DNA of 64,000 nt from Bacteriovoracia bacterium (GCA_050246755.1 JBFWVL010000006.1:96001-160000); one strand, 5' to 3'; shown: positions 40,098 to 62,627, counted from the first letter of the stretch. Notes: generated by a model not told the origin, from the sequence alone. Numbers and translations are program-made.

Positions 40098-40163
40098 GAG
40101 CATGTATCTGCTTGAACATTGACCGCCTCGGTTTATGCGATAGAATTTTTCAAGGAGTTGTGT

Positions 40164-40652
40164 ATGCAAATAATACGAAGAGCGAAGCCTGATGATTCTT
40201 TTGGAATCCACGAGGCACACATGCGTTCAATTTGTGAAGTTTGCTCGAAAGATCATTCGCCGGACGAGATTCGAGGCTGGGGGCATCGGCCCTCTCGTGA
40301 AGATCAAAGGCTTAATGCTATACAGAATCAGTTCGTGTGGGTCGTCGATAACGGTGGGAAAATTGAAGGCTATGGACACTTAGCTTTGATTTCAGAAAAC
40401 GGTCATACTCGCGGTCACATCATGGGCCTCTATTTGGTTCCCGAAGCCAATGGCAAGGGGCTGGGTACAGCAATCGCTCGTGAAATGCTTGCTGAAGCCA
40501 AAAGACAAAACGCTATTGCAGTTAGCCTTGAATCAACACTCACTGCTCATAGCTTTTATGAGAAAATGGGATTCACGGATTCGGGGGACCAAGCAACTAT
40601 CGAACTTGGCGGGTCGAAGATTCGATACATTCCGATGAAACTGGTTTTGTAA
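40164..40652 (+). CDS. GNAT N-acetyltransferase
   Basis: LYL.PE..GKGLG and STL.A..FYEKMGF motifs. Confidence 0.88.
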   Translation: MQIIRRAKPDDSFGIHEAHMRSICEVCSKDHSPDEIRGWGHRPSREDQRLNAIQNQFVWVVDNGGKIEGYGHLALISENGHTRGHIMGLYLVPEANGKGLGTAIAREMLAEAKRQNAIAVSLESTLTAHSFYEKMGFTDSGDQATIELGGSKIRYIPMKLVL

Positions 40653-40847
40653 TGGCTACAAGCAGTGAGTTGGGATCACTTACCGAGCGAGGCTTTTAGA
40701 GGCCGGATTCGGAGAACTTGATCGACCGCTAGCCCCTTTCAGGGTCCAAAAGGCTGCATTGGGAATGATCGCACCCATGACAGAACGATTCCTTTCTGAG
40801 GCGCTTGTTCCGCTAAGTTTATCGGATCTCAGCCGACGATTCGTTAA

Positions 40848-46231: not shown

Positions 46232-47047
46232 ATGCAAATGCGAACCCTCTATTCGTTTACGAACTACAAGGACTATCTCAACGCCAAACTCGATGAACTC
46301 GACGATGGAGGGCGAGGTGCCCGGGCGCAAATGTCTCGCTCTATAGGCTGCCAAACGGCCTATACAGCCCGCGTACTGCGGGGAGACGCCCACTTTAGCT
46401 TGGAACAAGCGGAGGCTATCAACGACTTCCTGGGGCATCCTGAAGAGCAAGGGCATTACTTCCTGCTTCTCGTCCAGCACACCAAAGCGGGGTCGCCCAA
46501 GCTGCGCGCGCGATTTCAGAAAATGATTCAGCAAGTGCAAGATGGGCAAAGTCTTCTCAAAAACCGCTTAGGAACCAAAGAAAATCTGGATGAGCGAGAT
46601 AGAATCATGTTCTACAGCTCTTGGATTTATCCAGCGATCCATGCACTGATTTCGATTCCTGGACACGAAACTCCCGAAAAAATTGCTCATCGCCTCAAGC
46701 TCGGGACCAAACAAGCTGTTTCCGGCGTTGAGTTTCTACTGGAAACGGGCCTTGTTGAGCGAAGCAAAAATGGAGCCCTAAGCGTGGGCAAAAGACAGAC
46801 GCACCTGGGGGCGGATTCGCCACTCATAGCTAAATACCATACTAGCTGGCGGGTGCAGGCGCTCAGGGCAATCGAGGAAGACCCCCAGCAAGGACTTCAT
46901 TATTCTTCTGTCGTGTCCATTTCTCGCCTGGATTTTGAATCTTTAAAGGAAGAGTTCATCGACTCCATTAGGCGAGCTAAAGAAGTCATTCGCAAATCTC
47001 CCGAAGAAGAACTTTGCGGGCTCTCTTTAGACTTCTACAAAATTTAA
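46232..47047 (+). CDS. TIGR02147/DUF4423-like HTH protein
   Basis: Paralog of 9695..10516 (GAR..., QTAY..RVLRG.A.FSLE.A, FYSSW, HLG..SP...H..WR). Confidence 0.8.
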   Translation: MQMRTLYSFTNYKDYLNAKLDELDDGGRGARAQMSRSIGCQTAYTARVLRGDAHFSLEQAEAINDFLGHPEEQGHYFLLLVQHTKAGSPKLRARFQKMIQQVQDGQSLLKNRLGTKENLDERDRIMFYSSWIYPAIHALISIPGHETPEKIAHRLKLGTKQAVSGVEFLLETGLVERSKNGALSVGKRQTHLGADSPLIAKYHTSWRVQALRAIEEDPQQGLHYSSVVSISRLDFESLKEEFIDSIRRAKEVIRKSPEEELCGLSLDFYKI

Positions 47048-48211: not shown

Positions 48212-48619
48212 ATGTTTCGTGCCGCAATTTTTATGCTTTTCACATTTTCAGGGGTGAATACGTTTGCCGGAGCTATGCCATCTCCGGAGAAGCTATGTTT
48301 TGATGCCTGCATTGGAGAGTCCCCCAATAATGTCAATGCGTGTTTAGATAAATGCTATGGAGAAAACCATATTTATCGCAACGATTCCAGCGGCATTTTT
48401 ATCGTGGAAGCCAGAGGAAAATGCTCGTTTGTATTTGATCCCGATTGTCAGCGGCTGGTGGAAAATCTCAAAACTCAAAATTACTCGGTGGCTCAGTCCG
48501 AGTGTCGCAGATCACGGGTCCACCAACTCAGCGACTTTGTCATGCGCCATAGGGTTACTATGAGAGACGACAACAGCGAAGTGCTGTGGATCTCTGTAAA
48601 GTATCAGTGCGGCCTCTAG
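48212..48619 (+). CDS. Secreted Cys-rich small protein
   Basis: GGAGGA RBS; signal peptide; 8 Cys. Confidence 0.65.
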   Translation: MFRAAIFMLFTFSGVNTFAGAMPSPEKLCFDACIGESPNNVNACLDKCYGENHIYRNDSSGIFIVEARGKCSFVFDPDCQRLVENLKTQNYSVAQSECRRSRVHQLSDFVMRHRVTMRDDNSEVLWISVKYQCGL

Positions 48620-48807: not shown

Positions 48808-49239
48808 ATGAAAACAATTTTATTTATTTTTTCAGCCATGCTTATGCAACCGGCTCTCAGTTGGGCGGGATGCAATCCTTGCGTTTGCGGACCAGGCAAT
48901 GGACAGCCCATTGACGAGGTTGGCTGTAAGGGAGTTCAGCCCAGCCAAGTGCTCTACTGCCAAGGCGGGCCGGGCGCTGCATCTGCTATTTTGGAACTCT
49001 ATCCGGCTTCGGGAAATCAGAGAATCGCTAAAATGACTCTAAAAAACGCCGCCTTTCCGCGAGGAATCAGAGGCACCTATGAATTATATCAAGGAAGCTC
49101 AAAGAGCTCTTACGGTAACGGGGTGTTGGGAGCATTGGATAGCAACATTATTTTTACTCCGCCAAATCATCTGAGTGTATATGCCCAAGGAAATTACGAT
49201 ATTGAATTTGGCTATGGAGTCCATTTTATCTGTCAGTAG
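48808..49239 (+). CDS. Secreted Cys-rich small protein
   Basis: Signal peptide then GCNPCVCGPG. Confidence 0.65.
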   Translation: MKTILFIFSAMLMQPALSWAGCNPCVCGPGNGQPIDEVGCKGVQPSQVLYCQGGPGAASAILELYPASGNQRIAKMTLKNAAFPRGIRGTYELYQGSSKSSYGNGVLGALDSNIIFTPPNHLSVYAQGNYDIEFGYGVHFICQ

Positions 49240-49322: not shown

Positions 49323-49610
49323 GTGACATGGTTTGTGAAATTCAACGAGCGTCTAAAACAATTTCGAGTTCTAGCAAAGCTTTCACAAAGAGAGGCCGCT
49401 CATCGTATCGGGGTTCCTGAATCCACCTATCGAGAATGGGAATATGGCAACGCCATACTTGGAGAACCATATCCTCGTGTTGCCAAAGTTTTCAACGTCA
49501 CACTAAACGAACTATTTGGCGTAAGCGACAGCATGGAAAGGTCAGCTACGGAAGAAATTGATAAAATCATCATGGAGCTTCAATTTTTGAAATCCAAGCT
49601 GCCTAAATAG
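49323..49610 (+). CDS. XRE-family HTH regulator
   Basis: LSQREAAHRIGVPESTYREWEYG motif. Confidence 0.85.
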   Translation: MTWFVKFNERLKQFRVLAKLSQREAAHRIGVPESTYREWEYGNAILGEPYPRVAKVFNVTLNELFGVSDSMERSATEEIDKIIMELQFLKSKLPK

Positions 49611-49770
49611 CGGTCCTCCGTTTTTAAAAACGTAAGTCCATTATCACATTTAAATTGTTTACGATCTGCGATAGTCATTCGGCAGCGAAACTTCTGCCGG
49701 GATGAAAGACACCTAAAACACTCAGCGCCGACACCAAGGAGAGAATAGTCCCGCAATTTTGGAGGCTTCC

Positions 49771-51147
49771 GTGCAACATACATTACTCCTCGTAGATGAC
49801 AAGAGCGAAAATCTCGACTTCCTACGCTCGATCCTGAAGCCCCAAGGTTACAATATCTTCCCCGCTGATAGCGTGGATTATGGTGCAAGCCTCCTCAAAA
49901 GATATAAAGGAAAAGTCTCTCTCGCGCTGATCGACCACAGTATGCCAGGAAAAAACGGCGATGAGGCGATTCGGCTTTTCAAGAGCATCGACCCTGACCT
50001 TCAGTGCCTCACGATCACCGGCGAGCCCACGGAAGAAACGATCCAAAAGCACATGGAAGCAGGCTCTTACTCCGTATTGAGTCGCACGTTACAGGCCGAA
50101 ACTCTGAAATCTGTGGTCAGTAGCTATTGCCGAAAGTTCGAGACGAAAACAGCTCTTTCCGTCATCGCCACGCCCGACGGCGCCAAAGAAAGCATTATTG
50201 CGGCCCATGATTTTGTTGGGGCTTCAGACCATCTTGCGGAGCTTTGCCAGTTGATCGACCGTTATGCGAAGACGGAGGAATCCGTGCTCATTCGCGGAGA
50301 GAACGGTACCGGCAAAGAGCGCGTGGCGCGGGCCATCCACTCACATTCCACGGTAGAATCCGGCCCCTTCATCGCCGTCAACTGCGCCGCCATCAGCGAG
50401 GGCGTCATCGAAAGTGAACTCTTCGGACACGTCAAAGGCTCGTTTACGGGAGCCATGCGCGACCGCAACGGATATTTTCGGGATGCGAACGGCGGGACAC
50501 TTTTCTTGGATGAGATCGGCGACATGCCATTATCGGCCCAGGCGAAGCTTCTGCGGGCCTTGCAGGAAAAAGAAGTCGTGCCGGTCGGTGCTACGAAGCC
50601 CATCAAGATTCGGACCCGCATTATCGCGGCCACCAACACGAAGTTGGAAGACGCCGTAAAAGCGGGCCGCTTCCGCGAGGATCTTTATTACCGTCTCAAC
50701 GTCATGCCGATTCAAATTCTACCGCTCAAGGATCGACCCGAAGACATTGAGCCGTTGGTGCATTTTTCTCTTACTCGATGGAACAAAAAGACCGGACAGA
50801 GAAAAGAAGTCCGCGCCCGCACCATTTCGGCCCTCAAAGCCTACTCGTGGCCTGGCAACATTCGAGAACTTGAGGCGGTCATGGCTCGGGTGCTCGCGCG
50901 AACGGAAGCATCCATTATCGAGCCCGAACACTTGGACGAAAATATCCGCTTCTTAGTCTCAGAGACGGACACCGATTTTTCGGAAAGCTATCGGTGCTTG
51001 AAAGAGCGGCACGATACGGAGGAGCGAAAATTTTTGTCGGAGCTTTTGAAAAAATTCGGATCACTCGGCAAGGCGGCGCTCGCCTTGAACGTGGCGAAGG
51101 CAACACTTCACGGACGAATAAAAAAATTAGGAATCCAAACCAAGTAA
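49771..51147 (+). CDS. Sigma-54-dependent NtrC-family response regulator (REC-AAA+-Fis HTH)
   Basis: LLVDD, IDHSMPG; GENGTGKE, ESELFGHVKGSFTGA, FLDEIG, WPGNIREL; GTG start after GGAGG. Confidence 0.93.
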   Translation: MQHTLLLVDDKSENLDFLRSILKPQGYNIFPADSVDYGASLLKRYKGKVSLALIDHSMPGKNGDEAIRLFKSIDPDLQCLTITGEPTEETIQKHMEAGSYSVLSRTLQAETLKSVVSSYCRKFETKTALSVIATPDGAKESIIAAHDFVGASDHLAELCQLIDRYAKTEESVLIRGENGTGKERVARAIHSHSTVESGPFIAVNCAAISEGVIESELFGHVKGSFTGAMRDRNGYFRDANGGTLFLDEIGDMPLSAQAKLLRALQEKEVVPVGATKPIKIRTRIIAATNTKLEDAVKAGRFREDLYYRLNVMPIQILPLKDRPEDIEPLVHFSLTRWNKKTGQRKEVRARTISALKAYSWPGNIRELEAVMARVLARTEASIIEPEHLDENIRFLVSETDTDFSESYRCLKERHDTEERKFLSELLKKFGSLGKAALALNVAKATLHGRIKKLGIQTK

Positions 51148-51170
51148 ACCAAAGAAGAAGGGGGTCAAAT

Positions 51171-51449
51171 ATGAAAATGAAAACTGTCATGCTCGTTGCG
51201 CTTTTTACCGCTCTCAGCCAAGGCGCGTTGGCGGAGCCGCTAACCGTTGGTCAAATTCAAATGCCTGCGGAGATTCAGCCGCTCACTCAGGAACAGACTC
51301 AACAGGCCATTGCGACTTTGCTCCAAGAAGGTATCATTGAATGGGTGGATGGACATTTTGTGGTCAAAGACCAAAATGCGCTTGAGCAGCTTCGGCAGCG
51401 CGGTCGCGTGGATCTACAAGCCGCCGCCTATTCGGTTATCTGTTACTGA
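51171..51449 (+). CDS. 92-aa secreted peptide, candidate RiPP/pheromone precursor
   Basis: Signal peptide ending QGALA; C-terminus GRVDLQAAAYSVICY; in an operon with YcaO. Confidence 0.6.
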   Translation: MKMKTVMLVALFTALSQGALAEPLTVGQIQMPAEIQPLTQEQTQQAIATLLQEGIIEWVDGHFVVKDQNALEQLRQRGRVDLQAAAYSVICY

Positions 51450-51463
51450 GGCGACAGACCAAG

Positions 51464-53008
51464 GTGAAATCACTTGTCTGGATCATGGCCCCACTGCTGC
51501 TTACAATAGCAGCAGTGGGATTTTTAAAATGGGGAAAGGAAAAAGTCATGCCGTCAGAAATTAGGGTCGCTTTCCCTTACAATAAGCCAGCTAAATTTTA
51601 TGAGCCCACCCGCATCCATCTTGCGCCCGAATATATTTTTTTGGAGAACACCTATAGCCCGTTGGTTGAAGTATCGCCAAAGGACGCAAGTCTTCTCCCC
51701 GGCGTCGCGGAAAGTTGGAAATGGGACGGCGAAGTGCTGACCCTCAAAATCAGAGACAACCTCAAGACCGTTGACGGCATTCCGATCACCGCCAAGGACG
51801 CCGAGTTTTCTTTAAAGCGCGTCCTGGTTCGTACCGGCAACACACACGGGAACTTTCAAAGCCTTGTCTGCGGAGCGGCCCAGCTCAAAAGCATTGACGA
51901 TAAGTGCGCGGGGCTTTGGACCGAGGGCAATCGGCTCTTTATCAAAGTCATGGGAAAATCGGCCTTCATTCTTCCCATGCTCTCGGGAATTGATTTTGCC
52001 ATCATTCCGAAAAACTCAGTCGATCCTAAAACACTCGACATTGTGGACTATCGCAATACCTCGGGGCCGTATTTTGTCGAAACTGATAGCGAACAGGGCC
52101 GCATCGTCTTGAGGGAGAATCCAAACCACTATCACGCGAGCAAAGAAATTCCAGAAACTATCCGCCTCGTCCCGGTCGAGAAGTCTAACAAGACCGCCTC
52201 ACTTGATCTTTTTGAAAAAGGCGGTGTGGACTTTATCACAACCATCGACGGAGCAAAGCCCGAAGACGTGATCGCCTACTCAAGAAATCACTCGGATTCT
52301 GTGCTGCATACGACGGCGAACATTCGCACGATCGTTCTTGTCTTTACCGAGCGAGGCTTGAAAGAGCTTTCCGAACACGAGCGCCTCTTGATCGGAAAGA
52401 GAGTGAAAGAGGCTCTTTGGCCGTACTTCTCAAAACTTCCCGGCTATGAATCCATGGATCAGTATTTCCCGTCCTTCAGCTATGGCGCTTTGGATGAATC
52501 CACGATTGAGAAAATCAAGTCAGAGCTACCTTCGGGAAATCTTGACTTGAAAGGGAAAACCTTGAAGCTCACGACCGTTCGCGTGGGCGACGTGACAGCT
52601 CTTCGCCCGCTTATTGAGGGCGCGATCCCAGGCAGCCAAGTGGAGGAAGGCGCGAACGTCCCGGCCTTTTCCAAGTACGAAAAGACGGAGGACATGCCTT
52701 ACGCCTTTATCGGCGGGCCGGATACCGGCTATCACGAAGACATCAGCCTTATTTCCTATATGCTGGTATCGGGAACCTTTGGAATGACGAAGGAGGAGCG
52801 GGCCTCATGGCTTGCAAAGTACATGGCGGTCCCAGAACAGGCCGACCGCCTCAAGCTGCTAAAATCCATTCACGAAGAATCACTCCGAAAAGGCGTGCTC
52901 ATGCCGCTTGCGTCGTGCCCTTATGTGGCACTTGCCAAGAAGGGGTGGAAAATTGAGCTGTCGCAGCTCTTTGCGAATAATCCGATATGGCTCATCAAGC
53001 GCAACTGA
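51464..53008 (+). CDS. Orphan family-5 (OppA/DppA-like) solute-binding protein
   Basis: N-terminal anchor; YSPLV, PGVAESW.W, DG.PITAKDA.FSLKR, SGPY, N..H motifs. Confidence 0.85.
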   Translation: MKSLVWIMAPLLLTIAAVGFLKWGKEKVMPSEIRVAFPYNKPAKFYEPTRIHLAPEYIFLENTYSPLVEVSPKDASLLPGVAESWKWDGEVLTLKIRDNLKTVDGIPITAKDAEFSLKRVLVRTGNTHGNFQSLVCGAAQLKSIDDKCAGLWTEGNRLFIKVMGKSAFILPMLSGIDFAIIPKNSVDPKTLDIVDYRNTSGPYFVETDSEQGRIVLRENPNHYHASKEIPETIRLVPVEKSNKTASLDLFEKGGVDFITTIDGAKPEDVIAYSRNHSDSVLHTTANIRTIVLVFTERGLKELSEHERLLIGKRVKEALWPYFSKLPGYESMDQYFPSFSYGALDESTIEKIKSELPSGNLDLKGKTLKLTTVRVGDVTALRPLIEGAIPGSQVEEGANVPAFSKYEKTEDMPYAFIGGPDTGYHEDISLISYMLVSGTFGMTKEERASWLAKYMAVPEQADRLKLLKSIHEESLRKGVLMPLASCPYVALAKKGWKIELSQLFANNPIWLIKRN

Positions 53009-53838
53009 CGGAGTGGATTCTCCGAAACGACGAGCGTTTGAATCTTCAGGTGCAAGAGCTTTCCTGGATCAAGTCTATTTTTCCGAACTGGTATGATCTT
53101 CAGGCTTCAATCTCCGTCTTTGGCGAGCGGTTCATCGGGCGCGGCTCCGATTCCGATGCGCACACGGCGCTTGGAAAAGCCGTGTGCGAAGCCGTGGAAC
53201 GGGCCACTTGCTTTCGTCACGGCATTTCTTCGCTCGGTGTTGCGGGCCATCTGAGCTTGGAGCTTGCACAAGCAAACGCAAGACTCGAATACATCGAGCG
53301 GTTTTGCATGAGCCGTCAGGTCGAGGAAAGGATTTTTCTTGCGAAACTTTCAGACTCCAAAGCGATCTGCGAGCGAAACGAAAAACGCGGGGTCGCGGTT
53401 CGTTTTTACCGTTTAGCCTCGCCAGAAAAAACACCAGTTGTTCTTTGCCTTGCCAACGGTGAGAACGCCGATCCACCTTTTGGCGGCATCCTGGGTCTTG
53501 GGGCCGCGTTGAGCGAAGGGGCGGCTTACGAAAAGGCCCTCCTAGAGTGTCTGAGAAACCTAGAGTTTTACTTTCACGCGAAACCCGCATCCTTAGCGTC
53601 TGCGGATTTTCAAAAAATTGCAAAACCAAAAGCCCAAGACCGGCAAGCTCTTCTGCGGGATCTGACTTATTTTCGACAGCTCATGGCATCCTTGGACCAA
53701 CCGGCCCCAGTGGGCTTGACGGTCCCTGAAGGAAAATTTGAGGGCCTTTCGTTAGACGCCGCCTTCGGGGATTGCCCGCTTGTTTTCACCCGCTATTCGG
53801 CCTCAGTACCGCTCGCGCAACCGGAGTTTCTTGCATGA
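52987..53838 (+). CDS. Compact YcaO-like protein
   Basis: GRG.....A..KA..EAVER, S.GVA.H....A...A..E..ER, GLGA......A..KALLE; C-terminus QPEFLA. Confidence 0.72.
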   Translation: MAHQAQLTEWILRNDERLNLQVQELSWIKSIFPNWYDLQASISVFGERFIGRGSDSDAHTALGKAVCEAVERATCFRHGISSLGVAGHLSLELAQANARLEYIERFCMSRQVEERIFLAKLSDSKAICERNEKRGVAVRFYRLASPEKTPVVLCLANGENADPPFGGILGLGAALSEGAAYEKALLECLRNLEFYFHAKPASLASADFQKIAKPKAQDRQALLRDLTYFRQLMASLDQPAPVGLTVPEGKFEGLSLDAAFGDCPLVFTRYSASVPLAQPEFLA

Positions 53839-55394
53839 GCCGGATACTCACTGACTTTGACCACGCCTTTCGCCGCCTGATGCGCCGTTATCTCTTGTCC
53901 GCGACACTCTTGCTTTTTGCGAGCATCGGCACCTCCGTCATTTGGAATCGCTCGATCAAGCAAGAGCTTGCGGATCAAGCGACCCTCTCGATACGAAGGA
54001 ATCTCCAAGCCGGAGATACGCGGGGCGAGTTGCAAGTCTTAAGCGGCATCCGTTTTAACGCCTTCCAGAGCCTCACGCAGTATGATCGCCAAGGCCGAAG
54101 GATCGTCACTCTTCCGCCCACGGTCGCGCCCATCGAGTACAAAGACCGAAGCCTTTGGGATCAAATTTTTTTAGGCGAAGTCCGATCCGCTATTCGCTTT
54201 GACGACGAAAAAGAAACGCCCATCGGTGAAGTCTCGTTCATCTATTCGCGCTTTGAATTGGCCGGATATGCGGCGCTGGCCTGGTTTGCACTTGTCGCCT
54301 TAGTCGCCATGACATTTTCTGGTGCAAAGACAAAGCTCCGCAAGGAAATGGAAAAGGAAATCGCGGTGCAAAACGCGAAGGTCTTAAAAGACCTCGTGGG
54401 GAAGGTTCGCCACAATATCCGCGCCCCGCTTGCAGTGCTCAATGCTTATTTTACGGCCTCCACGGAGGAGTCGGCGGCGCTGAAAAGTCAGGGACATCGT
54501 GCTGCCGGACGTATTGAAGAAATCCTTGCGGAGATGGAAGACGAAAGAGGAGTGCAGGCGCGCCCGGAAGAGCAAAAGCCCGTTGCGATCTTCGATGCTG
54601 TGGCCCTGGCCCGCCAGATCGTTGAAGAGAAGTCTCTTTTTCAATCCAGAGTCAGGCTTACGATCAAGAGCAACGGACCTTGCGCTTTTTCCCGCATTGA
54701 CGGCGCGGAATTGAAGGCGACCTTTTCAAACCTCTTAGACAACGCCCTGCAAGCCGTGGGCGAAAACGGCCAGATCCTCTTAGAAATCGAATCGGACGGT
54801 CATCTTGTTGCGGCGTCGATCCAGGACAACGGCAAAGGCATTGCGCCGGAGTTATTATCCAAAGTCCGTGAAAAGGGCTTTAGCTCAGGGAAGGAAAACG
54901 GTTCGGGTCTTGGCCTCTACTACGCGGAAAAACTCATGGACGACGCTAAAGGGAGTCTAACCATCGAGTCCGCGCTGGGCCAAGGAACCAAGATCACGCT
55001 TTTATTTCCGCAAGTGCCCACGCCGATCTGGTTTTGTAATGGGCTCGCGGTGCCGCCGAAAGGGACGCTTTATATCTGTGACGATCAAGAGTACATCTTA
55101 CAAGCCTGGAAGCTTAAGCTTCCCGAAAATCTGCTTAAGCGTGTGAAACTCTGCGCGGCCACGGAGCTACTGCCCGAAGCCGTTGACCCGAGCGACCGCT
55201 TTCTTATCGACTATGACTTCGGCAAAGGTAAACGCACGGGCCTGGAGGCGATTAGAGAGCTTCCAAGCCCCGCCCATGCGGTTTTGGTGACAGGCATGGC
55301 GTTTGAGGCTAGCGTGCAGGCCGAGTGCGCGGTGGTGGGCTGTAAGCTCCTCTCAAAAGACTTGCTCGCCTCGTTCCCTGTCACGACGGCCTAG
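53835..55394 (+). CDS. Membrane hybrid sensor histidine kinase with C-terminal receiver-like domain
   Basis: Two TMs around a periplasmic domain; HNIRAPL, NLLDNA, DNGKG, GSGLGL; ICDD...LIDYD...LVTG; ATGA overlap with ycaO. Confidence 0.9.
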   Translation: MSRILTDFDHAFRRLMRRYLLSATLLLFASIGTSVIWNRSIKQELADQATLSIRRNLQAGDTRGELQVLSGIRFNAFQSLTQYDRQGRRIVTLPPTVAPIEYKDRSLWDQIFLGEVRSAIRFDDEKETPIGEVSFIYSRFELAGYAALAWFALVALVAMTFSGAKTKLRKEMEKEIAVQNAKVLKDLVGKVRHNIRAPLAVLNAYFTASTEESAALKSQGHRAAGRIEEILAEMEDERGVQARPEEQKPVAIFDAVALARQIVEEKSLFQSRVRLTIKSNGPCAFSRIDGAELKATFSNLLDNALQAVGENGQILLEIESDGHLVAASIQDNGKGIAPELLSKVREKGFSSGKENGSGLGLYYAEKLMDDAKGSLTIESALGQGTKITLLFPQVPTPIWFCNGLAVPPKGTLYICDDQEYILQAWKLKLPENLLKRVKLCAATELLPEAVDPSDRFLIDYDFGKGKRTGLEAIRELPSPAHAVLVTGMAFEASVQAECAVVGCKLLSKDLLASFPVTTA

Positions 55395-55400
55395 ATCATC

Positions 55401-55495
55401 GTTCGGATTTCCGAACACCCTTCTTTTTCTTGAACGACAAGCTAACTCCTTATCTCACCGTGATTTTTCAAAAAAAACCGTTCGGATTCCCGAAC
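55401..55495. promoter_or_regulatory. Two palindromic enhancer-like sites GTTCGG-ATT(T/C)-CCGAAC
   Basis: gttcggatttccgaac at 55401-55416 and gttcggattcccgaac at 55480-55495. Confidence 0.75.
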
Positions 55496-55543
55496 GATTT
55501 TGAAATTCCGCGGTTGGAGTTGAAAACAGAAATTTCCATTCTG

Positions 55544-55556
55544 AATTAACTACTTA
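55544..55556 (+). promoter_or_regulatory. IHF-like site
   Basis: AATTAACTACTTA versus WATCAANNNNTTR (one mismatch), with an AT-rich upstream tract. Confidence 0.45.
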
Positions 55557-55584
55557 AGCCCATTTTTTCGCCGTCAAAAATCTC

Positions 55585-55599
55585 TGGCATTCTTCATGC
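55585..55599 (+). promoter_or_regulatory. Sigma-54 -24/-12 promoter of the transfer operon
   Basis: TGGCAT-TCTTC-ATGC with GG-N10-GC spacing, 27 bp before the first ATG. Confidence 0.7.
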
Positions 55600-55626
55600 C
55601 CTATAGGAAGGCAGGAGGACCGAAAA

Positions 55627-55899
55627 ATGATGAGTCTACAACTGCAACAGAGACAAGAAAAAGTCCCGCGCAAGTCGCTAGCGAAGCGGACCCAGTGCCC
55701 GAAGTGCAGATCCGCGAATCTGCTGAATGAAGGGCCGGACCAATTTTGCTGTGACTGTGATTGGGATACCTGCGCCGAGTACGTCGAGCGCGGCTTGATG
55801 AACAACCTAGACCTTGCTTTCCGTGAGCATTTTCCGAAGCAGGGCATCCAAAACCAGGAGCAAGAGCGCAAGCTCCAAAAATTAGAAAGGACCGCATGA
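55627..55899 (+). CDS. Small zinc-ribbon protein
   Basis: AGGAGG RBS; CPKC-x14-CDC. Confidence 0.65.
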   Translation: MMSLQLQQRQEKVPRKSLAKRTQCPKCRSANLLNEGPDQFCCDCDWDTCAEYVERGLMNNLDLAFREHFPKQGIQNQEQERKLQKLERTA

Positions 55900-56045
55900 T
55901 TATGAAAGCCATTAGCAAGGCGTTAGGCCGCGTAAGGTCTTCGCGTATTTATCACAAACTCTTTATCGCCCAGATCGACCATCAGCAGGTCGAGGAGCGA
56001 AAAACAGAAATGATGCTGAAATACCATGACAGGAGGTTTTTTTGA
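55896..56045 (+). CDS. 49-aa coupled small ORF (not in the ORF track)
   Basis: AAGGA RBS; ATGA overlap upstream and TTGA overlap downstream. Confidence 0.45.
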   Translation: MIMKAISKALGRVRSSRIYHKLFIAQIDHQQVEERKTEMMLKYHDRRFF

Positions 56046-56407
56046 AAGTCATCGACCTAGAGCTGCGTAGAAGAATTTTGCGGTTTTCATCTGAAGTGGA
56101 TGAAAAGGCGCTAGGCCGCGAGCTGGAGGCTGTCGCCGCGATTCCGCAAGGAGAGATTACGAGACGCGAGCGGGAGCGTCTGCTCGTGAGAAAAGCCGTT
56201 ATGCGTTTGCCGCAAAATGCCCGCGTGATTGTTTTTCTAAAATTTTGGGAAGGCGAAACGCTCGAAGAAATCGCTAGGCTGCTCGCCCTGCCACTTGAAG
56301 AGGCGCGTATCGAATACGTCTCGGCGCTTTCGTATCTTGAAAAAGTGCTGAAGCCCTATGTTTTGGAACCTAGCTTTTTTGTGAGGGGAAACGCTGGCGC
56401 AGTTTAA
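56042..56407 (+). CDS. Stand-alone sigma-70 region 4 protein
   Basis: A..RLP..AR....L.FWEG.TLEEIARLL motif; AGGAGG RBS. Confidence 0.75.
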   Translation: MKVIDLELRRRILRFSSEVDEKALGRELEAVAAIPQGEITRRERERLLVRKAVMRLPQNARVIVFLKFWEGETLEEIARLLALPLEEARIEYVSALSYLEKVLKPYVLEPSFFVRGNAGAV

Positions 56408-56458: not shown

Positions 56459-56791
56459 ATGAATACTCAAACAAGTCAAAAACTAAATCTTCATTGGATT
56501 GATACGCAGACGGGAAAGAAATATCCCGCAGGCGTTGGATTTTTTCTCGCCGAATACGGAGAGTTTCGGCTCAAGCTCGATGGCCTTGGTGGTGAGCAGT
56601 ATTTTGCCAAGCCCGTGAGCGGAAATGACGACCGCGTGAATTACCGCGTGGAAGTCGTCGTGAAGAACAAAGGCAAGTTCGCCCGCCGCGCCGAGATCGG
56701 CACGGGCTACATGGATAAGAACACGGGCGGCATTCTCTACATGGACATTGGCCCGTTCTCGCGCTGCCTGGCCTTGGAAGTCGAAGCCTAG
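56459..56791 (+). CDS. Hypothetical beta-rich protein
   Basis: AAGGA RBS; two similar halves (AGVGF and IGTGY). Confidence 0.6.
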   Translation: MNTQTSQKLNLHWIDTQTGKKYPAGVGFFLAEYGEFRLKLDGLGGEQYFAKPVSGNDDRVNYRVEVVVKNKGKFARRAEIGTGYMDKNTGGILYMDIGPFSRCLALEVEA

Positions 56792-56795
56792 CCAT

Positions 56796-57107
56796 TTGAA
56801 TAAAAAAACAACTTGGTTTGTGGTCATGGTGGTGGCGTTTGCCCTCGTCATGACTTTGGTGCCGGAGCTTGCCTTTGCCGACTACGGCGGGGGCGAGTTT
56901 CAGAGCCGCATGAGCGGCCTTACACGGAACCTTGTAAACGTCCTTCTGCCCGCCGCTTCGATTTTGGGCCTCGTTTGGGCCGCAATCTTGGCTGCGATGG
57001 GAGACGAAAGTAGCAAGGGCCGGATGGTACTCGTGGCGGTGGCTTCCGTGGTGGGCTTCCTGGCCCCGATCCTGATTCGCTGGCTTCAGTCGATTGCGGG
57101 CGGATAA
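56796..57107 (+). CDS. VirB2/TrbC-like pilin
   Basis: Signal ending PELAFA, two hydrophobic helices; directly before virB3/virB4-like genes. Confidence 0.72.
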   Translation: MNKKTTWFVVMVVAFALVMTLVPELAFADYGGGEFQSRMSGLTRNLVNVLLPAASILGLVWAAILAAMGDESSKGRMVLVAVASVVGFLAPILIRWLQSIAGG

Positions 57108-57424
57108 TGGAAATTCAAACTTCGAGCATCCACCGCAAGCTCGATGCAAAGCTGAAGATCGCGGGGCTTGAAGCCCCCGATCTTCTCTTTGTTCTCATCT
57201 TTGCGGCGGTGATGAACCTGTTTTTCGGGAGAACAAGCCTCGCCCTTCCGCTCGTGTTTGCTCTCCCGGCTGTCATGCTGGTTACGCTCTATATTGGCAA
57301 ACGGGATAAGCCGGATGGTTTCTTAGTCCACTTGGCGCGGTTTTACTTAACACCTGGATTTTTTAGCGCAGGAGAAGAGTCCAAATTTGAAGAAAAAATG
57401 AGGAAAACCATTTTTGGTAAGTAA
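57107..57424 (+). CDS. VirB3/TraL-like membrane protein
   Basis: LD...KI.GLE..D, two TMs, K..KPDGFL.H. Confidence 0.7.
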   Translation: MEIQTSSIHRKLDAKLKIAGLEAPDLLFVLIFAAVMNLFFGRTSLALPLVFALPAVMLVTLYIGKRDKPDGFLVHLARFYLTPGFFSAGEESKFEEKMRKTIFGK

Positions 57425-59846
57425 GTCCTTGAGCGAGCGGCTTCCGTTCTGGCACTTGGACGAGGATTTGACCGTTTTCAATGATGGCTCGCTTGGAGCG
57501 GGCTTTCGCCTTGGGGGTTACGACATATCGTGCGCAAGCCCCGAGGAGATTAACCGATTCAGCCGGAACGTGGAGCACTTGCTTGTATCCTGCCCGGAAG
57601 GGGTTAGGCTTCAGCTCTTTTACCGCCTAAGCCCGAACGTCGAAGGCGTTTTAAAAAAACATGAAGAGGTTTCCGCAGAGTGTCCCCCCGTTTACCAGGA
57701 GGTGCGCGGGGCAAGGCTCAATTTCTTGCGCGAAACGGCTAGGAATAGCGGCTTTTTCGTTCCTGAAATTTACCTGTTCGTGAGGAGCGAAGCCCTACTC
57801 TTAAAGAAAAAGAAGCTGTTTGAGAAACAAGCGCAGTATGAGCAGGTCACGCGCGGGCGCTATGAGGAACATAAAGAAAAGTTCTCAAGGCTCCTCAATC
57901 AGCTCGAATCGTCCTTGAAGGCTTGCAGGGTTGAACCCTCAAGGATCGGTAAAGAAGAGTGGTTCGCCCTCGTGTTTTCCTATCTCAATTTTTCGAGAGC
58001 GGAATCCCTTGGGGTGCCGGAGCTGAAAGTGTCAACGGGGCCGCTCGCGCAATCGGTGGCAAGCCAGCTTGTGCTTACCGATGCGGAAGTGAAGCGAAAC
58101 GCGGTTCAGATCGGAGAGCATTTCTTTCGGGTGCTCACGCTTAAAACCCTGCCCGAAGGCCAAACGATGGCCGCAATGGTGGATGAGTTCACAAAATTGC
58201 CGTTTCATTTTTGGGTTAGCCAAAACATTTCCGTTTTGAACCAGCGAAAGGAAATCGAAAAGCTAGAAATGAGTCGCCGTGTGGCGCACTCGATGGCAAG
58301 CGGCGCGAAGAATGTTTCCGACTTAGAGAGCGAATCAAAGCTATCGCAGATCGAGGAATTATTGCGCGAGCTTTTGGAGGGCTCGGAGCGCCTGGTTTCG
58401 ATGGATTTTAACGTCGTTCTTTGGGCAAATGACGCCTCCGAATTGGAAGAAAAAACGGACGAGGTGCTAAAAGCCTTTCGGAGCATGGGGCAAGCGGAAG
58501 GGCTTGTGGAGACGCTTGCGGGTTTTGACGCGTTTTTGGCTGCGGCCCCGAGTGTTTGCGCGGGGTTTCGGCATAAAAAACTCAAATCCTCGAACGCGGC
58601 CCACTTGATGCCGCTTTATTCCTGTTGGAACGGGAACGAGCGGCCCGTCTGTGTGCTGCCAAACCGCGAGGGCTCGATCTGCTCGATTGATCCCTTCGCG
58701 CCCGAGCTTCCGGCTTGGAACGGTTTGGTGTTCGGTCAAACGGGCTCAGGGAAAAGCTTTACCCTCTGCCAGCTCATGCTCCAGTTCTACGGGCAAAACC
58801 CGCGCCCGCGCATCGTATGGATCGACAACGGAGCCTCTTCCGAGCGGCTGCTGGAAGTGCTGGGCGGCGAGTTCATCGACCTAACGCTGGAGTCTGGAAT
58901 AACGATGAATATGTTTGACCTTGAGCCGGGGGAAAAAGAGCCCTCCTCAAGTAAGATCAAGCTCATTCTCGCCGTTCTCGAATTGATCTTGAAGGACCAA
59001 GAGCAAAAGGGTCTGCCCAAGCGAGAGAAGGCACTTTTAGAGGAGGCGATTTTCGAGGTTTACAAACGAACCGGAGAAAGAATCCCGACTTTAAGTGATT
59101 TGAAACTGCTGCTTGAAAACCATGCGGCTATAGAGATGAAGCGTTATGCGCAGATTCTCTTTTCTTGGACCGGAAACACGGCATACGGAAAGATGCTGGA
59201 TCGGCCTACGAACATCCGTTTGACCCGCGATCTTGTCACCATCGAGATCAAGGGGCTTACGAACCACAGCGAGCTAAAGGATATTCTGCTCTTGCTTCTC
59301 ACCTCGTTTATTCAGGACGCGGCGGCAAGCGATATGACCCGGCCATATCTCATGATTTGCGACGAAGCGGAACGCTTCTTTAAGAGTGGCGAGCTTTCAA
59401 AGCAGTTTATTATCACCTGCTACCGAACTTGGAGGAAGTACCGGGCGAGCATCTACTGTTTGAGCCAAAATTATAGGGACTTCTTGGCTGACCCGGAGCT
59501 GGCCGACGCGCTTTTGCCGAACACCACGAGCGTCATCATCTTGCGCCAGCGGAAAATCGACTGGAAGGACTTTCAAGAGGCGTTTGACTTCAACGATGCG
59601 CAAGTGGAAGCGGTGAAAAGCCTTGAAATCGTCAAAGGGAAATACTCAGAGTTTTTCTATATGCAAGACGAGAATCAGGCAATCTTGCGCCTCGTGCCCG
59701 AGCCTTTGAGCTATTGGATTTGCACGACGGATGGAAACGACAAAGCGCGTATTCAAGAAATGGAACAAAAATATCCGGGCCTTCCCAAAATCGAGATTTT
59801 AAAAAAACTCGCCTTTGGGGATACGGAAGAAAGGAGGGCTGCATAG
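57414..59846 (+). CDS. VirB4/TraC-like conjugation ATPase
   Basis: 810 aa; GQTGSGKS Walker A, IDNG.S, ICDEA, RKY.A....SQN. Confidence 0.9.
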   Translation: MVSKSLSERLPFWHLDEDLTVFNDGSLGAGFRLGGYDISCASPEEINRFSRNVEHLLVSCPEGVRLQLFYRLSPNVEGVLKKHEEVSAECPPVYQEVRGARLNFLRETARNSGFFVPEIYLFVRSEALLLKKKKLFEKQAQYEQVTRGRYEEHKEKFSRLLNQLESSLKACRVEPSRIGKEEWFALVFSYLNFSRAESLGVPELKVSTGPLAQSVASQLVLTDAEVKRNAVQIGEHFFRVLTLKTLPEGQTMAAMVDEFTKLPFHFWVSQNISVLNQRKEIEKLEMSRRVAHSMASGAKNVSDLESESKLSQIEELLRELLEGSERLVSMDFNVVLWANDASELEEKTDEVLKAFRSMGQAEGLVETLAGFDAFLAAAPSVCAGFRHKKLKSSNAAHLMPLYSCWNGNERPVCVLPNREGSICSIDPFAPELPAWNGLVFGQTGSGKSFTLCQLMLQFYGQNPRPRIVWIDNGASSERLLEVLGGEFIDLTLESGITMNMFDLEPGEKEPSSSKIKLILAVLELILKDQEQKGLPKREKALLEEAIFEVYKRTGERIPTLSDLKLLLENHAAIEMKRYAQILFSWTGNTAYGKMLDRPTNIRLTRDLVTIEIKGLTNHSELKDILLLLLTSFIQDAAASDMTRPYLMICDEAERFFKSGELSKQFIITCYRTWRKYRASIYCLSQNYRDFLADPELADALLPNTTSVIILRQRKIDWKDFQEAFDFNDAQVEAVKSLEIVKGKYSEFFYMQDENQAILRLVPEPLSYWICTTDGNDKARIQEMEQKYPGLPKIEILKKLAFGDTEERRAA

Positions 59847-62627
59847 CCTTTCACTTAGGAAAAATAGGGCTTGTTCTTGCGCTATTCATCGGAGGCCAGC
59901 CCGCGAGGGCCGACCTCTTTGGTGGTGACGGCGTGCCAAGAAACGCACGCGTGTAGGTGGTTGAAATGTACCACCCTCAGAAATTGGCCATTTATCTGAG
60001 TAGCTACCATGACGGCGTAGGCCGCAAGGCGGGGAAAACCCCTTCTACGTCGAAGCTCATGGGAAAATGGAGTGTTCAGGTGGCTTCGGTTTTGCTCGAA
60101 AGAGTGAGCCGTTGTCCGTCTCTGTCAGGAACACCCGCAAGTATCCAGGCCGCAACGAAAGTGAACCGCTGTCTAAGCGTCGTAACCAAAGCCAACGATC
60201 GTACAGAGTTTGTTGGTGATAGAGAGGTCGAGCCGGTCGTCTCCTGGCGAAGACTAAAATCAGTGTGGAAGCAATGGTCGAATGCACACACTGGCTCTCT
60301 CGGCGTTAAGGCGGGCGGCATGGATACATACACGCATGCGCAAACTTGGGATCTCCCTAGCGGTCCTAGTAGCACAATCCAGTGCGACTGGGAAGTCCGA
60401 CGTATAAGCACACAGTGCGAAAGCGAAGGAAACGCCGTTTTAGGGAAGTCGGATGAGGCAATAGTAGTGATGATGCCGAGGACATTACAACCTCGGCGGA
60501 GCGAAGTGCCTCTGCTTTTGAATACGTTTCCTCAAAGAAAGGGGGATGCATGATTGTCCAAAAGACTGAAAACGTGCGTGAGCGAAAGCTCACCAAGTCC
60601 CGCCTTCTGCAAAGGAAACTTTATTGTGCGGCCAAGGCCGACGGAAATCGTCGCTTTGGCATTCTGTTCGATAAGGTCTACCGCTGGGACATCCTGGAAG
60701 TGGCTTGGAAAATGATCCGAGCCAACCGGGGTGCATCCGGCATAGACCGGCAGTCCTTCGATGACATCGAAACGTATGGTGTCGAGAAGTTCTTGCGGGA
60801 ACTCCAAGAAGAGTTGCAATCGGGGAAATACCGTCCACAGCCAGTGCGACGAGTGATGATCCCGAAGGCCAATGGCAAATCGCGTCCGCTGGGAATCCCC
60901 ACGATCAAAGATCGTGTGGCCCAAATGGCTGTGAAACTTGTCATTGAGCCGCTCTTCGAAGCAGACTTTCAAGACTTCTCGTATGGGTTCCGTCCTCAAC
61001 GGAGCGCCCACCAAGCAATCAAAGAGGTACGCAAGTACATCAACTTTGGTTGCGAACATGTCATCGAAGTGGATCTTAAGTCCTTCTTCGACAGCATACC
61101 GCAGGACAAGCTGATGGATTTAGTTGCGCGTCGGATCTCTGATCCGCGCGTGCTGAAGATCATCAAGAGCTGGTTAACTGCGGGTGTTGCGACAGAAGCC
61201 GGAATTACTCGCTCGGTGATTGGGACTCCGCAGGGAGGTGTGATCTCGCCGTTACTGGCCAACATCTTCTTGAATGAGTTGGATCGTGAGTGGAGCAAAC
61301 GGGATTATGCAACTCGCAAGTGCGATGCGCATTTAGTCCGCTACGCCGACGACATGGTCGTCGCGTGTAAGTGGCGCCCGGAGTTCTACTACAAACAACT
61401 CATCGAGATCTTGAACACTCTTGGGGTGGAGGTCAACGCGGAGAAAACCCGCGTTGTACACGCGAGCGAGGGATTTGACTTTCTCGGCATTCATTTCAGG
61501 TTGGCCCCGTCTTATGCGGGCAAGATGAATTGCTATTACTGGCCATCACACAAGTCGGTTACGAACTTCAAGAAAACGATTCGCGAAATGGTGAACAACC
61601 GTTGCGCCGTCGATTTTGAGAAGATCATCGTGGCCGTCAATCCTGTGATCAGAGGCTGGGGCAATTACTTCGCCATCACGAATGCCGGAAAGTGCATGTG
61701 GGACTTAGATCGTTTTATCTGTGAGCGGTTTAACCGCGTTATCGCACGGGCCCGTAAGGTCCGTGGAGCTCATCAATCCGTTATGAGTGCAAAAGTTTTG
61801 TACGAACAATTTGGATTGATTGATCTTTACGGCCTAGCGAAGAAGGAGGCTGAATGCCGCACAATGAATTTCAATCGGTAAGCCGTATGAAGGAAAACTT
61901 CACGTACGGTTTGACGGGAAGGGATTGGAAATCTGTCTACGATTTGGTTAATAAGTCACTCCGCAACCGAAAGGGCGGAGCAACAGGATACCAAGTCTAC
62001 GAGATAAGGCGCCAATTCTTTACCCTACTGGCGGTGCTCACTCAGATTCTCGCCGAGAGCATCAAGCAGTATTACCAGCTTAAAGAAATCATCGGCCAGG
62101 GCCGCGATCAGGCGGATTTTTTGCGAAACCTCAATTCCGGTATTGAAAATTCAATCGGCCTTTTGCAATCGCTCCCCGTAAGGGATGAAAAAATCCTCGC
62201 CGAGCTGCGGGAATTTCAAGGGGCACTGAAAACCATTTCGGACGTTTATGGGATTATCCCTAAGAGCCGCGAGGCGACCATGCAGGCCCTTCACGATCAA
62301 ACGATTGCGGAGAGCCTTCGCATGATTACTTCGTTTAAGGAGTATTCAGAAAAGCAGGAGGAAAACTCCATCATGATCGCGGTGCAGAGCCGGGAGGCGT
62401 CGCCCAAGGGAGCGGCCCGGATGCAGGCCGAGACAAGCGCGGAGATTCTGCGCAGCCTCTCGCAGCTCATTCGGCTAAATACGCAGATGCTCAAGATGCA
62501 AAGTGAGCAATTTGCCATGCACAACAAAATGGGTAAAGACAGCGTGGGGAATTTTCAGCGTGTGAATCAAGACCTGGGCCGCAGCTTCCAGGGCTTCAAG
62601 TCGGAAATGGGACTCGTTAAATTCTAG
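59843..62627 (+). CDS. VirB5/TrbJ-like secreted protein split by a group II intron (exons ~59843..59930 and 62029..62627)
   Basis: Joining gives in-frame ...PARA-DLFGGD-V-AVLTQIL...; start codon uncertain (possibly ATA). Confidence 0.75.
59931..62028 (+). mobile_element. Group II intron, 2098 bp
   Basis: 5' GCGTG; RT ORF; domain V AGCCGTATG-AAGGAAAACTT-CACGTACGGTT at 61881; 3' end ACCCTAC; removal restores the host frame. Confidence 0.92.
60550..61881 (+). CDS. ltrA: Group II intron reverse transcriptase/maturase, no endonuclease domain
   Basis: N.GA.GID, RPLGIPT..DR, SYGFRP, GTPQGGVISPLLAN, RYADD, FDFLG, RGWGNYF. Confidence 0.95.
   Translation: MIVQKTENVRERKLTKSRLLQRKLYCAAKADGNRRFGILFDKVYRWDILEVAWKMIRANRGASGIDRQSFDDIETYGVEKFLRELQEELQSGKYRPQPVRRVMIPKANGKSRPLGIPTIKDRVAQMAVKLVIEPLFEADFQDFSYGFRPQRSAHQAIKEVRKYINFGCEHVIEVDLKSFFDSIPQDKLMDLVARRISDPRVLKIIKSWLTAGVATEAGITRSVIGTPQGGVISPLLANIFLNELDREWSKRDYATRKCDAHLVRYADDMVVACKWRPEFYYKQLIEILNTLGVEVNAEKTRVVHASEGFDFLGIHFRLAPSYAGKMNCYYWPSHKSVTNFKKTIREMVNNRCAVDFEKIIVAVNPVIRGWGNYFAITNAGKCMWDLDRFICERFNRVIARARKVRGAHQSVMSAKVLYEQFGLIDLYGLAKKEAECRTMNFNR

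Follow-up and report, generated by a model that had tools for sequence, protein, structure and literature searches.

A candidate modified-peptide and sigma-54 signalling cassette with a minimal YcaO enzyme beside a type IV secretion operon in a Bacteriovoracia bacterium

What is an enzyme of the YcaO fold doing between a solute-binding protein and a sensor kinase, directly upstream of a conjugation operon? This question is raised by a 64,000-nt stretch of DNA from a Bacteriovoracia bacterium (GCA_050246755.1, JBFWVL010000006.1:96001-160000; the whole stretch is hereafter the window), in which a cassette at 49759-55394 encodes a response regulator (RR), a small peptide, a solute-binding protein (SBP), a YcaO and a histidine kinase (HK), and is followed by genes of a type IV secretion system (T4SS). 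An initial annotation of the same DNA had proposed that a YcaO-modified peptide pheromone acts here in a quorum-sensing circuit controlling the conjugation of an integrative and conjugative element (ICE). The present analysis supports, with moderate confidence, the view that the five genes form a self-contained signalling circuit in which a peptide made by ribosomes and modified after translation (RiPP) and sigma-54 gate the T4SS operon of the putative ICE. Quorum sensing by a pheromone is doubtful and constitutes the least secure part of this reading.

Organization of the five-gene cassette

The open reading frame (ORF) listing placed the five genes close together on the same strand, as follows.

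49759..51147, + strand: NtrC-type RR/sigma-54 enhancer-binding protein, 462 aa, recognized by Pfam
51171..51449, + strand: putative precursor peptide, ATG at 51171, 92 aa, no Pfam or NCBIfam family
51464..53008, + strand: orphan OppA/NikA-family SBP, 514 aa, SBP_bac_5
52987..53838, + strand: minimal YcaO-fold enzyme, putative peptide maturase, 283 aa, PF02624
53835..55394, + strand: sensor HK, probably hybrid, with two transmembrane (TM) segments, frame open from 53772 (540 aa)

The RR and peptide genes are separated by 23 nt and the peptide and SBP genes by 14 nt, the SBP and YcaO genes overlap by 22 nt, and the HK gene probably starts with the ATG at 53835, in overlap with the YcaO stop codon (ATGA); homologues of the HK align only from residue 17-39 onward. 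These gaps and overlaps agree with the tight, co-oriented packing described initially. The RR gene of that description also stands, its start being moved from 49771, an alternative GTG, to 49759. In NCBIfam, no cassette protein reached a curated family cut-off, the peptide, YcaO and SBP included.

A much shortened YcaO enzyme

Profile and structure searches both recovered the YcaO fold that had been proposed for 52987..53838. The protein exceeded the Pfam threshold for PF02624 (48.6 bits, cut-off 25.7; E = 9.7e-13), and its AlphaFold2 (AF2) model, built from a 27-sequence alignment, reached a pLDDT of 92.9 and a pTM of 0.87. When this model was compared with the PDB by Foldseek, ranks 1-39 were all YcaO entries (TMq 0.57-0.63), led by 6pe3 (E = 8.6e-11) and including 6ci7 (TMq 0.63), with LynD, TruD, E. 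coli YcaO and McbD lower down. A profile search of PDB sequences returned MJ1094 (E = 8e-4) as the only true relative, in an alignment that covers YcaO residues 84-197 and places E101-x-x-E104-R105 on the ExxER of MJ1094.

Among 175 relatives of the enzyme, E68, E71, E101 and E104 were found in every sequence (175/175), R105 in 174/175, R72 in 171/175, E187 in 170/175 and H88 in 168/175. The ATP/Mg-binding motif published for YcaO enzymes is given as Sx6-7Ex3Qx3ExxER in the accessible part of PMC7774982. Projected through the MJ1094 alignment, its ExxER is complete in the present protein, its Ser position is occupied by G87 and its Gln/His position by N97 (120/175), and its first Glu position is not conserved. 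Because the acid residues are invariant among the 175 relatives, a constraint of the catalytic type appears to act on the protein, which is, as far as sequence comparison can tell, a much shortened YcaO with a strictly constrained acidic centre and not a decayed copy.

The precursor peptide and its tail cysteine

Translation of the second gene gave the 92-aa, putatively secreted peptide with the C-terminus SVICY that the initial annotation had described. Its N-terminus is charged, then hydrophobic, then rich in small residues, which corresponds to a canonical Sec-type signal as judged by eye with no predictor, and SVICY closes the mature part behind this signal. Across 19 homologues with a mean identity of 22%, L74 and C91 were invariant and G78 was at least 90% conserved. 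The AF2 model of the peptide alone (overall pLDDT 64.5) comprised a helix-hairpin-helix at residues 40-76 (pLDDT ~83-88) and a disordered tail (pLDDT 29-51).

Every RR-SBP gap examined contained a short ORF whose N-terminus resembles a signal, the tails including SVICY, SSICY, SSICFKSK, SAICLKQ, STFCY, GTICF, GSICW, RTICL and PSCWTAPF. A Cys occurred within the last 25 residues in 36 of the 40 YcaO-linked peptides, being penultimate in 13 of the 36; the residue before it was Ile in 21/36, and the one before that was Ser or Thr in 21/36. Overall, Cys made up 4% of the tail residues of these peptides versus 1% of their middle parts. In addition, paralogous cassettes of one genome carried differing tails, namely GGSICW and DRTICL in genome G249 and NGTVCI and GGTICF in genome G083.

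A comparison is offered by cassettes with a radical S-adenosylmethionine (SAM) enzyme in place of the YcaO. The window's assembly contains four VirB4 loci, each with an adjoining maturase-SBP-HK-RR cassette, of which three have a YcaO and one has a radical-SAM/SPASM enzyme. The three cassettes outside the window are composed as follows.

Contig C6, 30-46 kb (locus L064): YcaO, peptide ending PSCWTAPF, SBP, HK
Contig C1 (locus L062): sigma-54 site, YcaO, peptide ending PSCVGGL, SBP, HK, RR
Contig C5 (locus L063): sigma-54 site, RR, radical-SAM enzyme, 112-aa signal-peptide ORF ending KIPSEW, SBP, HK

The VirB4 of the T4SS on C5 is 82% identical to that of the window. The radical-SAM enzyme of this locus matched PF04055 (2.4e-23) and resembles SPASM peptide maturases, and it reached no curated cut-off in NCBIfam. 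Its relatives were detected in 19 of 401 genomes, where the order RR, radical-SAM enzyme, peptide and SBP recurs in 4-kb loci. In none of the 12 radical-SAM-linked peptides do the last 25 residues include a Cys, as against the 36/40 given above (Fisher p = 9e-9, a value overstated because the sequences are related). The tail Cys is therefore seen to accompany the YcaO and not the cassette as such, and this is the pairing that a substrate-enzyme relation predicts. Several of the radical-SAM peptides at L065-L079 end in tails of a Pro/Ser-x-Trp type (KIPSEW, KSPSPWGGG, SAPSAW, PRSWA, TRSVW), and others in IPPN or IPPQ.

Predicted binding of the peptide by the enzyme

The complex of the YcaO with mature peptide residues 22-92 was predicted along with three controls, and it scored 0.82, the best control reaching 0.00. 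Among solved complexes, 58 of 80 attained a score of 0.82, and among mismatched pairs 2 of 110 did, a calibration that is approximate here, as own alignments were used. The partner pLDDT was at least 68, and the runs shared at least 92% of their contacts. On the peptide, the contacts involved residues 69-74, 77 and 79-91; on the enzyme, they involved residues 8-27 (N-terminal helix and strand), 58-62, R105, 169-171, E187, 190-200 and 282-283. In the contacts of lowest predicted error, YcaO strand residues 20-26 face L74, which is conserved, and the stretch R79-V80. The model thus supports binding of the peptide tail to the YcaO, and it further suggests that the enzyme may recognize the leader by itself, without an E1-like partner.

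Binding protein, kinase and regulator

The sensing and regulatory proteins named in the initial annotation were likewise recovered. For the RR, Pfam detected Response_reg (1.1e-13), Sigma54_activat (1.2e-69), AAA_lid_14 and, below cut-off, HTH_50 (4.8e-4), and the translation contains a GSFTGA loop of the GAFTGA type. Every NCBIfam equivalog remained under its cut-off, including LuxO (1.9e-74). With its receiver, sigma-54 AAA+ domain carrying a GAFTGA-type loop and C-terminal helix-turn-helix (HTH), the protein has the predicted make-up that defines the NtrC family.

The SBP matched SBP_bac_5 (6.3e-17; 62.2 bits against a Pfam cut-off of 32.4), and the OppA, NikA and CntA equivalogs of NCBIfam all lay far under their cut-offs. 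A hydrophobic segment at residues 1-23 may serve as an N-terminal membrane anchor or signal. The SBP was the best-conserved protein of the cassette, with 54-80% identity across loci L003-L010. A scan of 10 upstream ORFs (out of 15 ORFs of at least 100 aa at 38-49.6 kb) and of the downstream genes detected neither a permease nor an ATPase of the ABC type, in agreement with the orphan status assigned to the protein initially.

For the HK, Pfam detected HATPase_c (2.1e-19), and the AtoS and ZraS models of NCBIfam span residues 168-414. Two hydrophobic segments were located at residues 19-37 and 140-165, numbered from the ATG at 53835, as expected from the two-TM kinase first described. Pfam gave no match in the periplasmic loop or in the last ~121-128 residues. 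By hhalign, the C-terminal 128 aa aligned with the receiver profile of the RR (probability 96.9%, E = 1.4e-10), with the acidic pair (DD) and the acceptor D, T and K positions kept. Because this part of the protein matches a receiver profile with its key residues retained, the assignment as a hybrid HK is supported.

Promoter region and T4SS operon

The following candidate regulatory sites lie between the HK gene and the first gene of the T4SS operon.

55401..55416, palindromic: palindrome 1, GTTCGGA-N3-CCGAAC (GTTCGGATTTCCGAAC), candidate enhancer site for the RR
55480..55495, palindromic: palindrome 2 (GTTCGGATTCCCGAAC), 79 bp past palindrome 1 and ~90 bp before the -24 element
55544..55556, + strand: weak site resembling that of integration host factor (IHF), one mismatch to WATCAANNNNTTR
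55585..55600, + strand: sigma-54 (-24/-12) promoter, TGGCAT-N5-ATGC (TGGCATTCTTCATGCC), ~27 nt before the ATG at 55627

The two palindromes and the promoter ahead of the T4SS operon, which had been noted initially, were recovered. Nowhere else in the 3.55-Mb assembly was GTTCGGA-N3-CCGAAC matched exactly, and the upstream palindromes present at other loci differ between loci. The sigma-54 consensus has GG at -24 and GC at -12 in the spacing TGGCAC-N5-TTGC, and strict matches numbered two in the window versus 0.27 expected by chance. The second strict sigma-54-like match, TGGCACAGGCGTTGCT, lies at 36287-36302 on the + strand. The genome encodes rpoN on contig C3 (Sigma54_DBD, 6.7e-64). CTGGCAY-N5-NTGCC precedes the zinc-ribbon gene in 7 of 12 regions (the window, L003, L004, L005, L006, L007 and L009); as for the remaining regions, L008 ends with its contig, L010, L042 and L045 have a good -24 and an imperfect -12 element as judged by eye, and L047 has none in register. 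Moreover, a strict sigma-54 site was present directly 5' of the RR gene at L042, L043, L044, L046, L048, L049, L050 and L063 and 5' of the first cassette gene at L053 and L062, so that self-activation of such cassettes would fit.

Past the promoter, the operon begins with the genes listed below.

55627..55899, + strand: zinc-ribbon protein with CxxC...CxxC, first gene past the promoter, with a ribosome-binding site ahead, 90 aa, no Pfam family
56042..56407, + strand: protein resembling sigma-70 region 4, 121 aa, Sigma70_r4_2 (3.2e-6)
56748..57107, + strand: TrbC/VirB2 pilin, PF04956 (7.8e-8)
57107..57424, + strand: VirB3-like membrane protein, which precedes VirB4 in related loci, no Pfam match
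57414..59846, + strand: VirB4/TraC T4SS ATPase, TIGR02746 TraC-F-type (4.2e-85) and TIGR00929 (3e-60), both below cut-offs

Homologues of the zinc-ribbon protein with 36-75% identity occupy the same place at L003, L004, L007, L009, L010, L042 and L045, and a 110-aa ORF lies between the sigma-70-region-4-like gene and TrbC/VirB2. After VirB4 and past the end of the window come a VirB9-like protein (CagX-like, below cut-off) and TrbI, then an FtsK_SpoIIIE ATPase, Replic_Relax and a large serine recombinase, with polynucleotide phosphorylase (PNPase) next to them; a T4SS together with a coupling ATPase, a relaxase and an integrase would suit an ICE. The T4SS gene after VirB4 is split by a group II intron at ~59950-62030, which contains a reverse transcriptase ORF at 60550-61881 (RVT_1 6.7e-41, with GIIM) and a match to Rfam RF00029 at 61878-62028 (Intron_gpII, 46.3 bits); exon 1 ends in ARADLFGGD at ~59940, the reading resumes with AVLTQIL at ~62031, and the gene is uninterrupted in the C5 paralogue.

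Distribution of the cassette among the Bdellovibrionota

A search with the single YcaO protein yielded 29 close relatives of 253-293 aa and matches in 2 of 61 relatives' genomes. The YcaO profile retrieved 947 cluster representatives at E <=0.001, of which 243 reached <=1e-30 and were mostly 315-340 aa long, and among 401 genomes sampled from the phylum it matched 66, spread over 46 of the 204 genera, with 2-5 copies in several genomes. The complete genomes G249, G241, G170 and G082 are among those with cassettes. In the ESM Atlas, look-alike compact YcaO clusters are labelled Pseudomonadota and Verrucomicrobiota. Among the sequencing runs listed, the stretch occurs in three DNA runs of one study, one of which may be its source, and in no RNA run.

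The first eight loci, all from Bdellovibrionota metagenome-assembled genomes, had the order RR-peptide-SBP-YcaO-HK without exception (8/8), and the zinc-ribbon protein, TrbC, VirB3 and VirB4 came next wherever the contig extends. The recurrence of this gene order in the phylum was also evident in the full synteny survey of 49 distinct loci, which included 40 places with 9-kb flanks (2 duplicates) and 2 from the window's genome. The SBP, YcaO and HK genes were adjacent in 40 of the 49; among these 40 core cassettes, a sigma-54 RR was found in 29 and a signal-peptide ORF before the SBP in 38. The core is absent from nine loci, namely L043 and L044 (no adjacent SBP), L057 and L103 (no HK match, L103 at a contig end), L059, L098 and L101 (YcaO only), and L100 and L104 (no YcaO match with these queries). 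At L086, L087 and L088 (genomes G348, G256 and G170), no adjacent RR match was found; these loci, whose peptide tails are Gly-rich and Cys-free, may represent a subfamily with a different modification.

Genes and sequence features upstream of the cassette

An Xre-type HTH gene at 49323..49610 on the + strand (Pfam HTH_3, 7.8e-10) lies immediately 5' of the cassette, and a 49% identical homologue occupies the equivalent place at L003. Between this gene and the RR start, an inverted repeat CGGCAG-N8-CTGCCG at 49680-49699 could be a terminator or an operator. Farther upstream are a DUF4423 protein at 46232-47047 (4.2e-24) and, at 48212-48619 and 48808-49239, two small ORFs rich in Cys, each starting with a signal-like sequence. 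The GC content drops from ~0.55 to 0.48 at 38 kb, possibly at the left edge of the element or at an insertion hotspot (window 38000-42100), and an HTH/partial recombinase ORF at 39239-39847 and a weak rve integrase-core match at 40888-42042 are found nearby. No tRNA was detected in the window.

Proposed mechanism and alternative explanations

In the circuit that we favour, the 92-aa precursor would be bound by the minimal YcaO in the cytoplasm, with its L74/G78-R-V segment pairing with the N-terminal strand of the enzyme, and its C-terminal [S/T]-[I/V]-Cys-hydrophobic tail would be modified at the expense of ATP, most likely by cyclodehydration of Ile90-Cys91 to a thiazoline. The modified product would then be exported by Sec and its signal peptide cleaved, after which the membrane-tethered OppA-family SBP and the two-TM hybrid kinase would recognize it in the periplasm. 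The kinase would set the phosphorylation state of the NtrC-type activator, which may bind the two palindromes and drive the sigma-54 promoter of the zinc-ribbon/TrbC/VirB3/VirB4 operon. We infer the modification chemistry, the export, the binding by SBP and kinase, the phosphotransfer, the sign of regulation and any sharing between cells.

A number of observations weigh against this circuit. The match to PF02624 is restricted to profile positions 115-254 of 325, even the smallest YcaOs of solved structure are ~80-100 residues longer than the enzyme, Gly and Asn stand at the published Ser and Gln positions of the motif, and the SagD-type cyclodehydratase family TIGR03604 gave 32.7 bits against a cut-off of 219.25. 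In azoline-forming clusters of thiazole/oxazole-modified microcins (TOMMs), the YcaO is partnered by an E1-like/Ocin-ThiF leader-binding protein and a flavin mononucleotide (FMN) dehydrogenase, and neither was found in the cassette or the scanned neighbours. Furthermore, no Cys falls within the last 25 residues of 4 of the 40 YcaO-linked peptides (the tails at L086-L088 are Gly-rich and free of Cys, and the Cys of L089 lies 27 residues from the end), and thiazoline formation therefore cannot be universal. The exported product would have ~71 aa, and the cassette contains no exporter, protease or outer-membrane route; as no passage of such a Sec product through the outer membrane is evident, cell-to-cell signalling is doubtful. 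The cassette also lacks a histidine phosphotransfer (Hpt) domain although its kinase is hybrid, and no strict sigma-54 site precedes the window's RR, so that an autoinduction loop is not found here. The IHF-like site of the initial annotation occurs no more often than by chance (1 one-mismatch match versus 0.36 expected in shuffles of the 169-bp region, not significant).

The distribution weighs in the same direction: in the fetched DNA, VirB4, VirB3 or TrbC lie near 16 of the 40 core cassettes only, three further loci (L005, L006 and L008) being interrupted by contig ends. As the T4SS link is seen in about four of ten cases, the cassette is, within the loci surveyed, a general module of the Bdellovibrionota and not specific to ICEs. 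None of the computational checks set out initially refuted the proposal: the YcaO fold was recovered, the cassette is conserved (8/8 first loci, 40/49 with the core), and in the window's clade a sigma-54 promoter and the zinc-ribbon/TrbC/VirB3/VirB4 operon follow it wherever the contig extends.

Three other explanations were weighed against the signalling circuit. In the first, which we consider unlikely, the YcaO product would be a periplasmic effector (a bufferin-like metal or redox protein, an antimicrobial or an exclusion factor) rather than a ligand made for sensing, while the SBP, kinase and RR would sense another cue or provide feedback, as with nisin, and regulate the cassette. A precedent exists in the bufferins, described in the accessible part of 10.1101/2024.03.18.585515 as Sec-exported, Cys-modified, protein-like RiPPs that remain in the periplasm. 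The folded domain of the precursor, the lack of an exporter, the 24 of 40 cassettes that do not adjoin a T4SS and the sigma-54 promoters that many cassettes have of their own would all suit such a product. However, the peptide, SBP and kinase stay together in 38 of the 40 cassettes and do so with either maturase, the paralogous tails differ within G249 and G083 as specificity between ligand and receptor predicts, and the peptide has one Cys only and no chelating set.

The second explanation, which we consider improbable, is that regulation by the cassette extends to itself or to distant genes only, with its T4SS neighbourhood due to transport as cargo on mobile elements and the T4SS promoter answering to another activator. 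It would account for the low share of T4SS-linked cassettes (16/40), and other sigma-54 activators do exist in the genome (an RR-like match at L062). At L052, a cassette without a T4SS, the downstream genes (GNAT acetyltransferases, a glyoxalase, an inositol phosphatase and similar) form no coherent target. Against it, the promoter follows the kinase gene in the window's clade where the contig allows (strictly in 7 of 12 regions, one of the 12 being cut by a contig end), the palindromes are found nowhere else in the genome, and all four VirB4 loci of the genome adjoin such a cassette.

A third explanation, in which the YcaO-like protein modifies another protein (as do the archaeal YcaOs that act on McrA and on ribosomal proteins) or is a non-catalytic scaffold and the small ORF encodes an unrelated periplasmic protein, would fit the truncated domain, the incomplete motif and the existence of protein-modifying stand-alone YcaOs (in the accessible parts of PMC5589413 and PMC13063428), but is very improbable in view of the invariant acid residues, the tail Cys that goes with YcaO and not with radical SAM, and the complex score of 0.82 versus 0.00 for controls.

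Relation to known signalling systems

The logic of the proposed modified-peptide circuit recalls agrBDCA of staphylococci, which combines a precursor peptide, a modifying enzyme, a membrane HK and an RR in one compact cassette. Both share a modified Cys (here predicted) near the C-terminus of the core and tails that differ between paralogues or alleles. They differ in that maturation would fall here to a cytoplasmic, ATP-dependent YcaO (or, in sister cassettes, to a radical-SAM enzyme) and not to the membrane protease AgrB, and in that the present cassette has a Sec signal, an additional SBP as putative co-receptor, a sigma-54 regulator, a Gram-negative host and a T4SS as its presumed output. 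Similarly, the RiPPs nisin and subtilin are perceived through two-component systems of their own clusters, which activate the cluster promoters; these, however, are Gram-positive systems whose lanthipeptide antibiotics have an ABC exporter and a protease of their own, with no SBP, sigma-54 or T4SS output.

The receptor side resembles LuxP-LuxQ-LuxO of Vibrio, which likewise joins an orphan periplasmic binding protein, a two-TM hybrid kinase and a sigma-54 NtrC-type regulator. The ligand of that system is the small molecule AI-2, and LuxU provides its Hpt step. Here, in contrast, a modified peptide encoded by a gene of the same operon is the presumed ligand, the cassette shows no Hpt, and the SBP falls into family 5 (peptide/nickel). 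In purpose, the closest likeness is to pCF10 (PrgZ/cCF10), ICEBs1 (RapI-PhrI) and pLS20, Gram-positive mobile elements in which a secreted peptide times the expression of transfer genes, and pCF10 also encodes an OppA-like binding protein of its own. The peptides of these elements are unmodified, imported by Opp and bound by cytoplasmic receptors, whereas the present cassette combines a maturase with a kinase and a sigma-54 activator and has no permease.

Among YcaO enzymes, those of archaeal McrA thioamidation (6pe3, 6ci7) are the best structural matches and share the ExxER and the absence of a fused E1-like domain, and the bottromycin YcaOs are likewise minimal and stand-alone. The present enzyme differs from such minimal YcaOs in being ~80-100 residues shorter, in having no TfuA nearby and a peptide with a Sec signal as its presumed substrate, and in that leader recognition is predicted on its own N-terminal helix and strand. 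In the accessible part of 10.1101/2024.03.18.585515, bufferins have, like the present peptide, an N-terminal Sec signal and a protein-like size and fold, and their Cys residues are converted in the cytoplasm before export; they depend on MNIO and DUF2063 enzymes in place of a YcaO, have several copper-chelating Cys residues, and have no SBP, kinase or activator. Taken together, the cassette resembles agr and nisin in logic, LuxP-LuxQ-LuxO in its receptor, pCF10, ICEBs1 and pLS20 in purpose and bufferins in export, and is a member of none of them.

Implications

Two-component signalling by modified peptides is textbook knowledge in Gram-positive bacteria and, to our knowledge, almost unknown in Gram-negative ones, and the YcaO enzymes that we know of act in antibiotic synthesis and protein thioamidation, not in signalling. 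In the literature covered, with subscription journals and supplements outside its scope, no report was found that links a YcaO to a kinase/SBP cassette, sigma-54, a T4SS or Bdellovibrio. As a candidate both for modified-peptide signalling in Gram-negative bacteria and for a signalling role of YcaO, the cassette can be put to a direct test, with the radical-SAM sister cassette as a natural control in the same genome. In addition, a minimal 283-aa YcaO that seemingly recognizes its own leader would be useful to enzymology and peptide engineering, and the ~40 cassettes with differing tails are a resource for studies of specificity.

The broader idea that these RiPP cassettes are true cell-to-cell pheromones throughout the phylum, with YcaO and radical-SAM/SPASM enzymes being interchangeable and each T4SS element having a private peptide channel, is tentative, and we rate it as possible rather than probable. 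If the pheromone reading is true, it would represent the first signalling role of a YcaO enzyme, the first Sec-exported YcaO or radical-SAM RiPPs and the first control of Gram-negative conjugation by a modified peptide, and it would suggest that the mobile elements of predatory bacteria time their transfer through private peptide channels.

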